Source: Candidatus Methanomethylophilaceae archaeon
Lineage (GTDB): Archaea > Thermoplasmatota > Thermoplasmata > Methanomassiliicoccales > Methanomethylophilaceae
Length of the DNA stretch: 64,000 bases
Direction: 5' to 3'
Assembly: GCA_944320495.1 (NCBI GenBank)
Contig: CALUHR010000005.1
Location: forward strand, 248,581-312,580
A program made the translations under genes and the position numbers. Of this stretch, positions 25,722 through 29,926 are shown one piece after another. Positions within the stretch are counted from its first letter, which is position 1. Each line of letters starts with the position of its first letter. The notes under the pieces are model-generated. The model was given only the letters and a program-made list of their open reading frames with translations. It ran no database searches and was not told where the DNA came from.

Positions 25722-26057
25722 ATGAAGGGCAGATTCAGTCTTCGGAGACGTCGTATCTACACGATCGGAGAGATTGCGGAGATAATCGCTCCCATCGCCA
25801 GGAGATACGGGGCAAGAGAGGTTTGGCTCTTCGGTTCCTACGCTCGCGGCGAAGCCGACGCGGACAGCGACGTGGACATCGCCGTGATGCCCGGGGAAGG
25901 TTGGGGCATACGCATCGGCACGTTCTGGCGCGAGATCAGCGATGCCCTGGACAAGGATGTGGACCTGACTACGTTTGACGACGAGGCGTTCATCGATTTC
26001 GTCAAGAAGGACATGGTGCGGATTTACGTCTCGGAATCCAAGCGGATGATGCCGTGA
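25722..26057 (+). CDS. Minimal nucleotidyltransferase (MNT)
   Basis: LFGSYARGEADADSDVDIAV (GS...DxD). Confidence 0.9.
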   Translation: MKGRFSLRRRRIYTIGEIAEIIAPIARRYGAREVWLFGSYARGEADADSDVDIAVMPGEGWGIRIGTFWREISDALDKDVDLTTFDDEAFIDFVKKDMVRIYVSESKRMMP

Positions 26058-26203
26058 AGGGAGCAATTATGAAGGAAACACCCGGGTGCAAATCTTAGCC
26101 AAGGACCAAGTAGATGCGTTCGGGCAAAGACACATGGGATGTGTCATCCTTGAAACCTTCGCCGTGATGCACCCAGACACAAAGCGACAAGGGGTTGCCC
26201 CCC

Positions 26204-26416
26204 GTCGGAAACCCCGCGACTGCGGGGAACACCGCATCATCTCCAAGAGTTGGATGAATGTCTTGGAATCACCCCCGCTTACGCGGGAAACACGGCCTGA
26301 TGCTGATGGTCGCGTTCGCCCAGTTCGGATCACCCCCGCTTACGCGGGGAACACTCAATCCCGGTACATCCCATAGAATGTACTCTACGGATCACCCCCG
26401 CCGGAGCGGGGAAGGC
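26204..26416 (-). CRISPR. Type I-E-like mini-array: four 29-nt repeats, three spacers (32, 32, 33 nt), no adjacent cas genes
   Basis: Repeats at 26204-26232, 26265-26293, 26326-26354, 26388-26416; minus-strand consensus GTGTTCCCCGCGTAAGCGGGGGTGATCCG. Confidence 0.9.
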
Positions 26417-26675
26417 ATCCCGGCCCGGGGAGTCGCGTTCCAATCCCCGGGCCGGGCCTCCGTCGCCACGTGCAGGGACGACGGCGGACCGCAATTGGAG
26501 GTTTAAGGTCCATCACGGTCAAGGACGAGCATATAGAAACGGTCTTCCCTGGAATCCGCCGCGACCTTGACCGTCCGACAACCGTCGGAACGGTTCATAA
26601 ACGGTTCCCATCCCATCGCCCCCGTGTCCGTGACCACCGAATCAACCCCCGAGACGGACCCCTCACGGGGATCCC

Positions 26676-27044
26676 ATGTACATTAGCGAGGAGGAGGAGG
26701 CCCGTCGCCTCGCGGAGATCAAGCGGTTCTGCGATGCGAACGGGATCCACGCGTCGAAGACGTTCGATTCGTACTACTTCACGATGCGCGGCCATCGGTA
26801 CCGCGTGTCCAACCACACGGTGGAGGCATCCAACCGCCACGCCTACGACAGGGCCGGGCGGAAGCGCAGGGAGCTGTACCATCCCGACGGGAGGGAGGAC
26901 GGCGTCACATACATCCACGCCAGCAGGTACCGCATCATCAGGATCTACCTGGACCTCAAGCTCGGCGCGAAGCTGGACGGACGCGGGCGCGTCGTGGGGT
27001 ACACCTACCGCGGGAACGGAGGGGGCAGACGATGGCCGTCATAG
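26676..27044 (+). CDS. Hypothetical protein (SYYF...RVSNH motif)
   Basis: 122-aa ORF with typical codon bias. Confidence 0.75.
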   Translation: MYISEEEEARRLAEIKRFCDANGIHASKTFDSYYFTMRGHRYRVSNHTVEASNRHAYDRAGRKRRELYHPDGREDGVTYIHASRYRIIRIYLDLKLGAKLDGRGRVVGYTYRGNGGGRRWPS

Positions 27045-28552: not shown

Positions 28553-29596
28553 ATGGAAGCAAGAACATTCCTCAAGCAGTATGAATGTCAAATGAGCGTT
28601 GCGTGGAACGAGAAGCGCCGCAATTGGCCCGCCATCGGATCCGTCCCCCGTGGAGAGTATCTCTTTCCCGACACCGTCGAGGAGGACCTCCAGGCATGGT
28701 GGAGGCACCTGATTGATAGCAACATCAACTGGCATACGGTCAAGGCCAACTGGGCCGCCACCCGCAGATGCATCAAGCTCCTCATGGACGCAGGATTGAA
28801 CTACGAGGCTTACGCCGTCGATAGAGATGACATCATCTTTCTCAGAGAGGACGGTTTCGCTGGCCTCTCCCCCGACACCGTCAAGTGGTACATCATGCTC
28901 TTCGGGCGCTACCTGAAGTTCAACGGGAACTCGGTGATTGACGGCATGGATCTCCATTGGCAGAACTCGGACGTCCATCCCGGCAAGGACTGGCTGGAGA
29001 GGGAACAGGCCGCCGTTCTCATGGCCTGCGACGGCTATACCGTCCACGAACGCACGGCACTCGTTCTGATGTTGACTATGGGACTCCGTAGGATCGAGGT
29101 CCTCAGGCTGAGGGTGGATGGCATCACCGACGACGGTGTCATAGTGTGCGGTAAGGGGCACGGCGGCGGGAAGTACCGCTTCGTGCCGTACTCCAAGGGC
29201 GCAAGGCTCCAGATCCAGGAGATGCTCCGCTGGAGGGAGATGCAGATCTCCGACGAGAGGGATCTCGACCCCGACTACGAACCTGATCCGGAGTTGTTCC
29301 TCACCCAGACGAGGCACCCGCATCACTACAATGAGGCGGGTACGGGGTTTGACAAGAGTATCCTGAGAGGCATACGCGATAAGTCGGGGGTGGAGTTCTC
29401 CAACCACACGTTGAGGAGGACGTTTGCCAGGCTGACCTACTTCGAGAACCCCACAGAGAGGACGCTGGAGATACTGGCCAGCATCCTGGGCCACGAGGAC
29501 ACGAAGGTCACGCTCCGCTACATTGGGGTGTCCGAGGACGAGAAGTCCGACGTCATGCTCAGCCAGAGCTGGTTCCGATCCCCTCAACGGAGTTGA
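28553..29596 (+). CDS. int: Tyrosine recombinase/integrase
   Basis: GLRRIEV (R), HTLRRTF (HxxR), LGHED, TLRYIG (Y). Confidence 0.95.
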   Translation: MEARTFLKQYECQMSVAWNEKRRNWPAIGSVPRGEYLFPDTVEEDLQAWWRHLIDSNINWHTVKANWAATRRCIKLLMDAGLNYEAYAVDRDDIIFLREDGFAGLSPDTVKWYIMLFGRYLKFNGNSVIDGMDLHWQNSDVHPGKDWLEREQAAVLMACDGYTVHERTALVLMLTMGLRRIEVLRLRVDGITDDGVIVCGKGHGGGKYRFVPYSKGARLQIQEMLRWREMQISDERDLDPDYEPDPELFLTQTRHPHHYNEAGTGFDKSILRGIRDKSGVEFSNHTLRRTFARLTYFENPTERTLEILASILGHEDTKVTLRYIGVSEDEKSDVMLSQSWFRSPQRS

Positions 29597-29898: not shown

Positions 29899-29926
29899 GC
29901 GAGTTCAAATCTCGTCCCTTGCACCA
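29899..29926 (+). other. tRNA 3'-end fragment (T-arm + acceptor 3' strand + ACCA), probable attR; Leu-like
   Basis: GCGAG-TTCAAAT-CTCGT-CCCTTGC-A-CCA ~300 bp after the integrase, with no canonical D or anticodon arm upstream. Confidence 0.75.

Follow-up and report, generated by a model that had tools for sequence, protein, structure and literature searches.

A cas-less array of CRISPR-like repeats in an integrated element of a methanogenic archaeon (the mini-array) is probably a Cracr array, that is, a source of crRNA-like anti-CRISPR RNA by which a mobile element tightens the autorepression of the cas genes. Judging from its sequence, the element most likely makes the CRISPR machinery of its host switch itself off. 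We favor this reading because the type I-E system of the host is compatible with the mini-array, the seed of spacer 1 is identical to that of the CreR guide, guide and target site co-vary among related cas loci, and the module is conserved. Autorepression by CreR has been demonstrated in type I-B, I-E and V-A systems (bioRxiv 10.1101/2023.03.10.532045), and the Cracr mechanism has been demonstrated for the CracrIE array of a Salmonella prophage (bioRxiv 10.1101/2024.10.29.618823). Descriptions of such anti-CRISPR RNAs date from 2023-2026 and are so far limited to phages and plasmids of bacteria; in the preprint of Liu et al. (bioRxiv 10.1101/2024.10.29.618823) the host phyla are all bacterial and archaea are never mentioned. 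With the mini-array, the Cracr strategy would extend to a host-associated (gut-type) Methanomassiliicoccales-like methanogen and the element integrated in it, where a single genome would hold all the partners: the host regulator RNA, the target site embedded in cas3 and the mimic carried by the element. Its natural variants, which combine guide-target co-variation with a minimal one-guide form, could make this a testable archaeal system for studying the autoregulation of cas genes and its subversion.

The mini-array and the element that carries it

The window, that is, the whole stretch of 64,000 nucleotides analysed here, corresponds to C5:248581-312580 of a host genome of 1.77 Mb in 14 contigs. 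Between positions 26204 and 26416 of the window, read in the minus-strand sense, we found four 29-nt repeats of type I-E that enclose spacers of 33, 32 and 32 nt (Table 1), with repeat starts 61, 61 and 62 nt apart when the phasing is followed along the window. An earlier sequence-only reading of the same DNA had located the four repeats at the same positions, and the three plus-strand spacer sequences that it gave proved correct. Each repeat follows a common plan, with a flank of 5 nt, a CCCCGC/GCGGGG stem that closes on a loop of 4 nt, and a handle of 8 nt. Folding predicted a hairpin of 6-7 bp for all four, so that the hairpin is kept while the loops change from TCCG to GTAA, GTAA and AGTC, just as the earlier reading had described. 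The motif CCCCGC-N4-GCGGGG occurs 13 times genome-wide, with three copies in the mini-array, nine in the host array and one in the host CreR-like unit; R_c is the mini-array repeat that falls outside this exact count, the base of its stem being a U-G pair. Since the hairpin motif is confined to the mini-array and the host CRISPR locus, the 61/61/62 phasing is not a product of chance.

Table 1. Coordinates of the mini-array, of its surroundings and of the host CreR-like unit (positions in the window unless a contig or locus is named)
Feature	Position	Strand	Description
R_a (first repeat)	26388..26416	-	GCCTT-CCCCGC-TCCG-GCGGGG-GTGATCCG; first repeat of the transcript; 8-nt 5′ handle for the spacer-1 RNA
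Spacer 1 (psi-spacer, 33 nt)	26355..26387	-	PAM-proximal bases 1-15 are TAGAGtACATTcTAT
R_b	26326..26354	-	GTGTTCCCCGCGTAAGCGGGGGTGATCCG; flank GTGTT, loop GTAA, handle GTGATCCG
Spacer 2 (32 nt)	26294..26325	-	No target found
R_c	26265..26293	-	R_b-like, loop GTAA; U-G at the stem base; handle with one change, GTGATTCC
Spacer 3 (32 nt)	26233..26264	-	No target found
R_d (last repeat)	26204..26232	-	Flank GTGTT and hairpin kept, loop AGTC; terminator stem replaces the handle
Terminator-like 10-bp hairpin with T-rich tail	26175..26207	-	Directly after R_d
GC-rich 13-bp hairpin	26419..26456	-	In the leader of about 90 nt just upstream of R_a; kept in all copies
Candidate archaeal TATA box TTTCTATAT	26531..26539	-	Putative; AT-rich octamer site, conserved in L094
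Tyrosine integrase	28553..29596	+	Pfam PF00589 and PHROG integrase families
att repeat	29901..29926	+	exact 26-nt copy of the 3′ end of tRNA-Leu(GAG) at C5:134070-134095
Host CreR-like unit	C6:67022-67103 (L009:13023-13104)		Repeat-guide-repeat, degenerate; 32-nt guide at C6:67051

The mini-array repeats vary in their loops and flanks, and an AT-rich leader of the host type is absent. The variation is not spread evenly, R_a deviating solely in its 5′ flank and loop and R_d solely in its loop and 3′ handle. Our repeat comparison thus bore out the degeneracy pattern (5′ end of the first repeat, mainly the 3′ handle of the last) from which the sequence-only reading had suspected a function, and the conservation pattern described below argues the same way. 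The stem and handle of R_a are identical to those of the host repeat, and its 5′ flank GCCTT is the flank of the array repeat at L074, a variant locus with a 95% identical Cse1. As for R_b, an exact 28-mer of it is the array repeat in several unrelated type I-E systems. We rejected R_a and R_d as ordinary terminators, given that in the host genome their motif occurs at CRISPR loci only and that the R_a handle is perfect.

The terminator-like hairpin that follows R_d has no long oligo-T run. The intergenic region upstream of the mini-array contains two AT-rich octamer sites only, one of them being the candidate TATA box of Table 1. A scan for bacterial sigma-70 promoters, which is not applicable to an archaeal host, returned nothing, and an Rfam search gave sub-threshold noise only.

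The sequence-only reading had also placed this cas-less I-E-type array in a mobile element, and the genes nearby agree with it: the tyrosine integrase gene and the tRNA-Leu att repeat lie 2-3.5 kb from the mini-array, and the cas operon is found on another contig (C6). The immediate neighbors are a nucleotidyltransferase gene (25722-26057) and small genes without known function. The integrase-proximal genes are syntenic in four other species of the genus, where the cargo at the slot of the mini-array differs. In a diverged copy of the element (L094:1264-2005), a 145-aa gene, possibly a HEPN partner, overlaps the end of the nucleotidyltransferase gene. Its counterpart in the window (26058-26100) has just a 9-codon ORF left, and this partner gene seems to have been lost beside the mini-array in the window copy. 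On a larger scale, tRNA-Leu att repeats enclose 144 kb (C5:134009-278506), of which window positions 1-29926 form the right part. This region carries an intein-containing C5 methylase, many surface proteins with PKD or Listeria-Bacteroides repeats, a Zot-like ATPase and a Fic gene, as well as a long run of small ORFs and two further tRNA genes, and may represent either a single giant element or a composite of several.

The host type I-E system and the targets of the spacers

The host genome encodes McrA and two mtmB genes with one in-frame TAG each, which together identify the host as a pyrrolysine-decoding methanogen. Its nearest named relatives by Cse1 and Cas3 indicate an affiliation with Methanomassiliicoccales. 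Pfam annotation of contig C6 revealed a complete type I-E operon (cas3, cse1, cse2, cas7, cas5, cas6e, cas1 and cas2), followed on its 3′ side by an AT-rich leader and then by nine perfect repeats GTGCTCCCCGCGAATGCGGGGGTGATCC(C/G), in a nine-spacer array. [quoted passage not shown] The sequence-only reading had asked for a host I-E locus with the same repeat and had named the lack of a compatible Cas6e or Cascade among the grounds for regarding the mini-array as a decayed relic; the locus is present, with the same stem and handle, and its operon is complete.

The host array ends in a degenerate repeat, and about 170 nt further downstream comes the guide of the CreR-like unit (Table 1). The first repeat of the unit reads CCACGC-CTT-GCGTGG-GTGTTCCT, in which compensatory C-to-A and G-to-T changes keep the stem, and the second reads GTGCT-CCCCGC-ATTC-GCGGGG. 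The flank of the unit is conserved in two related loci, L079 and L084. By its sequence, C6:67022-67103 is a unit with the architecture of a host CreR/crlRNA.

When we looked for seed-type PAM-proximal matches across the host cas locus, and then across the genome, spacer 1 gave just three 13/13 seed matches genome-wide, namely itself, C6:59720 and the CreR-like guide at C6:67051. Positions 6 and 12 of a guide, as every sixth position, are flipped and left unpaired by Cascade. Within bases 1-15, spacer 1 differs from the CreR-like guide only at these two flipped positions, so that the two have 13 of 13 pairing positions in common, and it is identical to C6:59720-59734 (flank AAC) save for flipped position 12. 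In 200,000 shuffles of spacer 1, a seed of this quality turned up 44 times within the 13.3 kb of the cas locus. The resemblance to the CreR unit covers 70 nt of the spacer-1 unit, with 71% identity.

The C6:59720 site falls within the 3′-terminal part of cas3, with the start of cse1 about 155 nt further on. It holds ATTATATAG, which includes ATTATAT, TTATATA and TATATAG, all three among the 7-mers most enriched upstream of the genes of this genome, words that resemble the archaeal TATA box. In five variants, no 36-nt window of the 2.75-kb cas3 has a lower GC content than one at the site or within about 30 nt upstream of it. By composition alone, the cas3-3′ site is a putative promoter, and it could equally serve as a roadblock. 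The six sites compared have the flanks AAC, AAT, AAT, GAC, GAA and GAC, in which the A at -2 is the only constant.

The host cas3 has an in-frame TAG at C6:59734-59736 (L009:5735-5737), within the TATA-like target site. After this codon the next 46 codons are open and conserved, and they overlap the cse1 start. The TAG is common to the 95% variant (L074/L075) and is absent from L076, L079, L084 and L085. Full-length Cas3 may need pyrrolysine, since the genome decodes TAG in mtmB; if the cas3 TAG is not read as pyrrolysine, host interference may already be impaired.

None of the three spacers had a protospacer or full-length match elsewhere in the host genome, and none had a protospacer among the INPHARED phages and PLSDB plasmids, nor in IMG/VR, which we searched with full and 23-nt patterns in which every sixth base was set to N. 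BLAST searches of 174 genomes of the family gave noise-like best matches of 24-26 out of 32 and no protospacer. In the reverse direction, the spacers of the host array had no match in the window. For the seeds of spacers 2 and 3 (AACTG-GCGAA-GCG and AAGAC-TTCAT-CAA), no meaningfully placed match of at least 9/10 was found in six close I-E variants and five same-genus I-E loci; a 9/10 match of spacer 3 on the opposite strand of the L079/L084 promoter window was set aside on account of a seed mismatch at position 2 and a GGT flank. The seed of spacer 2 matches 14 of 15 bases at C9:82599-82613, with the mismatch at flipped position 6, in the end of a 650-aa archaeosine-tRNA-transglycosylase-like gene that encodes the PUA domain. 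As a target this match is weak, its flank (ACG) lacking the A at -2. Chance alone would give about 0.01 such matches per spacer.

The sequence-only reading had envisaged that the mini-array borrows the host Cascade to attack competing elements, and had proposed a spacer search of the host genome, related elements and viromes, which yielded no full-length protospacers; the proposal is thus unsupported for every spacer. In a conventional mini-CRISPR of this sort, the three RNAs would guide host Cascade-Cas3 against competing viruses or plasmids and bring about superinfection exclusion. Such a role would agree with the canonical spacer length (32-33 nt), the period of 61-62 nt, the canonical repeats R_b and R_c and the compatible host Cascade, and spacers 2 and 3, which have no other explanation, could act in this manner alongside spacer 1. 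However, no protospacers were found in the genome itself, the phage and plasmid sets, IMG/VR or the 174 family genomes (where matches reached at most 26/32), even if these databases may lack the targets, the seed match to CreR and to the cas site accounts for spacer 1, and the minimal module of L094 consists of spacer 1 alone. We therefore regard a conventional mini-CRISPR as unlikely. A mixed explanation, in which spacer 1 would lower Cascade synthesis while spacers 2 and 3 would redirect the remaining Cascade to rivals or silence host genes through their seeds, seems to us improbable as well; one candidate for such silencing is the seed match of spacer 2 in the archaeosine-tRNA-transglycosylase-like gene at C9:82599-82613. 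If true, it would mean that the element reprograms its archaeal host by means of the host's own CRISPR effector, with a regulatory site tied to the amber (pyrrolysine) codon of cas3.

Guide-site co-variation and conservation of the module

The Cracr reading draws further on a comparison of related cas loci, which were fetched on the basis of Cse1 proteins 95%, 86% and 85% identical to that of the host, plus two obtained via Cas3. Each of them carries an AT-rich site at the corresponding position of cas3; this site starts with TAGAG and has A at -2. At positions 7-11 the cas3 site reads ACATT in the host as against ACCTT in L079, and the CreR-like guides of L079 and L084 read ACCTT. Guide and site of L079 are thus both ACCTT where the host has ACATT, indicating that guide and site co-vary. 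The cas3 site of L084 has ATCTA at positions 7-11 and makes its pairs further along the sequence. The group with ACATT, comprising the host, L074/L075 and L085, is the one that spacer 1 fits. At C7:6748-6780, on a 7-kb contig of the present genome, 31 of 33 positions agree with the first spacer of the array at L079, a locus of a related archaeon, and this contig might itself be a mobile element, or contain one, that is under attack by the CRISPR systems of relatives. This match was tried for PAM inference, and with its atypical flank and seed mismatches it gave no PAM.

Other copies of the mini-array were found only through exact look-up of neighboring proteins, and pattern scans of the JGI metagenomes and IMG/VR for R_a plus handle, or for handle plus seed, revealed no further copies. 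The module is present in ten independent assemblies, one of which has the spacer-1 unit alone. The three-spacer form recurs in eight independent assemblies, which together show one SNP (position 4 of spacer 2, in L086); samples that contain it include GCA_964306345.1, ERZ27271791 and ERZ24773489. In the diverged element L094, R_a and spacer 1 are followed directly by R_d and the terminator hairpin. The sample that gave L094 also yielded L074, the 95% host variant, whose cas3 site matches spacer 1 too. Spacer 1 of L094 carries two substitutions, both outside the seed, which is unchanged, and the stem of its R_a is kept by a G-U pair. The terminator stem is made up entirely of Watson-Crick pairs in L094, as opposed to two G-U pairs in the window copy. 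Since G-U pairs are possible only in the minus-sense RNA, this conservation points to the minus strand. Upstream, 260 nt are about 97% identical between the window and L094, including the 13-bp GC hairpin and the TATA-like TTTCTATAT, and the sequence past the terminator is unrelated. The comparison of the two copies thus delimits a conserved unit composed of the leader, R_a, spacer 1, R_d and the terminator. Spacers 2 and 3 and the accompanying GTAA-loop repeats appear to have entered as one block, through recombination inside R_d.

These data also bear on a Racr-like decoy, in which the repeat hairpins would sequester Cas6e or Cas7 in aberrant complexes and the identity of the spacers would be irrelevant. 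Repeat-mimic RNA anti-CRISPRs are established (PMC10651486) and the hairpins are exactly conserved though their loops vary, which agrees with a decoy, while competition for Cas proteins also belongs to the Cracr model. Racrs, however, are solitary repeat units, whereas the mini-array has phased full-length spacers, and a pure decoy does not predict that the spacer-1 seed equals the host CreR seed at all pairing positions and is kept in the diverged copy, so we find this explanation very unlikely. The sequence-only reading had pointed out that repeat-like RNAs can act as anti-CRISPRs, and in this it came close, counter-defence being what the data indicate, but the mechanism they suggest is a copy of the CreR seed rather than a repeat decoy. 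That the mini-array is a non-functional fragment of a host CRISPR/CreR locus, gained by recombination and now decaying, is highly improbable: the 71% identity over 70 nt does imply that the spacer-1 unit derives from such a locus, and the repeats are heterogeneous and a canonical promoter was not found, but the inter-repeat differences are all at positions dispensable for the three mature RNAs, the stems are preserved by wobble or compensatory pairs, spacer 1 has an intact seed although its other bases have diverged, two diverged elements with unrelated downstream flanks agree at about 97% across the module, leader hairpin and terminator included, and eight assemblies carry the module nearly unchanged.

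Predicted mode of action and comparison with known systems

As a Cracr array, the mini-array would be transcribed on the minus strand, and the host Cas6e would cut the transcript at the repeat hairpins, by analogy with the work on the Salmonella CracrIE array and on CreR. By the same analogy, the spacer-1 RNA would load into the type I-E Cascade of the host, and its 15 PAM-proximal bases, of which about 14 would pair, would bind the cas3-3′ site, which is also the site of the host CreR-like unit. Such partial pairing would let Cascade bind without the full R-loop needed for Cas3 recruitment, and Cascade placed over the TATA box, or acting as a roadblock, would lower the expression of cse1-cas6e, again by analogy with that work. 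The extra RNAs from the mini-array could likewise compete with host crRNAs. Spacers 2 and 3 may be Cracr units directed against other I-E variants, ordinary guides, or passengers.

The mini-array resembles the prophage CracrIE array of Salmonella enterica Se29 (Liu et al., bioRxiv 10.1101/2024.10.29.618823) in having no cas genes, in consisting of several units of I-E repeat-like sequence on an integrated element, and in its psi-spacer, which copies the PAM-proximal part of the CreR guide and has a partial match to the putative promoter region ahead of the Cascade genes. As in some arrays of Liu et al., the other units have no assigned targets. The differences from Se29 are that the element resides in an archaeon, that its spacers have the full length of 32-33 nt as against psi-spacers of 21-24 nt, and that its target lies inside the cas3 coding sequence on a TATA-like box, whereas that of the Se29 array is an intergenic bacterial promoter with -35 and -10 elements. 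The carrier, unlike those of the described Cracr examples, is not a recognized tailed phage. Cracrs are expected to be encoded on an element outside any cas locus, as is the case here, and to have repeats of the host subtype that can be processed and loaded, which the sequence predicts. They are further expected to share at least nine PAM-proximal bases with a host CreR or CreA guide, where spacer 1 shares 13 of 13, and to match a cas promoter partially next to a functional PAM. In the host, the seed falls on the AT-rich, TATA-like C6:59720-59734 with flank AAC, and A at -2 is found in six variants, both PAM and promoter being putative. At the sequence level the mini-array thus has the features of a Cracr, and Cracr function, with maturation by Cas proteins, repression of cas transcription and loss of immunity, is predicted for it.

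The plan of repeat, guide and repeat is also that of the host CreR/crlRNA (bioRxiv 10.1101/2023.03.10.532045; Shmakov et al., bioRxiv 10.1101/2023.03.03.530964), as are the seed-only complementarity upstream of cas8e/cse1 and the tolerance of mismatches at every sixth position. A CreR, however, is part of, or next to, the cas locus under its control, whereas the mini-array has three units and is carried by a mobile element on contig C5; the genuine host unit is the one at C6:67022-67103. With the mini-CRISPRs of Sulfolobales viruses (Medvedeva et al. 2019, PMC6858448) the mini-array shares a short cas-less array with host-type repeats on an archaeal element. The spacers of those viruses fully match related viruses and mediate interviral exclusion (PMC6858448), whereas we found no mini-array spacer that matches a competing element, and spacer 1 points to the host cas locus. 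Racrs, or solitary repeat units (Camara-Wilpert et al. 2023, PMC10651486), are similar in being repeat-mimic non-coding RNAs on mobile elements that exploit Cas proteins. They consist of a solitary repeat and have no functional guide, whereas the mini-array has four phased repeats and the conserved part of it is a guide seed. Nor does the mini-array resemble a canonical adaptive array, having unequal repeats, no AT-rich leader and the same spacer set in eight assemblies. Our analysis suggests that cas-less mini-arrays should be checked for seed-only matches to the cas locus before they are labelled as orphan or competitor-targeting arrays.

Of 61 genomes from the genus, 10 have solitary hairpins of the form CCCCGC-TCCG-GCGGGG directly behind stop codons (L046-L055; genomes G156, G157, G029, G158, G034, G024 and G161), and several of these hairpins share the CCTT 5′ flank of R_a. 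Their contexts are conserved, some resembling mobile elements, and these hairpins may be plain UNCG-loop terminators or Cas6e-binding mimics. A related element (L038:5725-5752, on contig C50 of G158) contains a solitary homologue of R_d that includes its non-CRISPR 3′ flank (26/29), and no guide-like match to the cse1 region of G158 was found for it. Finally, an AT-rich human-faecal scaffold recorded as a phage (MT835524.1, about 26670-26810; L010:1440-1580) carries a solitary I-E repeat TGTTCCCCGCGTAAGCGGGGGTGA with a near-perfect TTGACT-17-TATAAT promoter ahead of it, an enclosing stem and a T-run after it, an arrangement reminiscent of a solitary repeat unit of the Racr type matched to a Lachnospiraceae-type I-E system.
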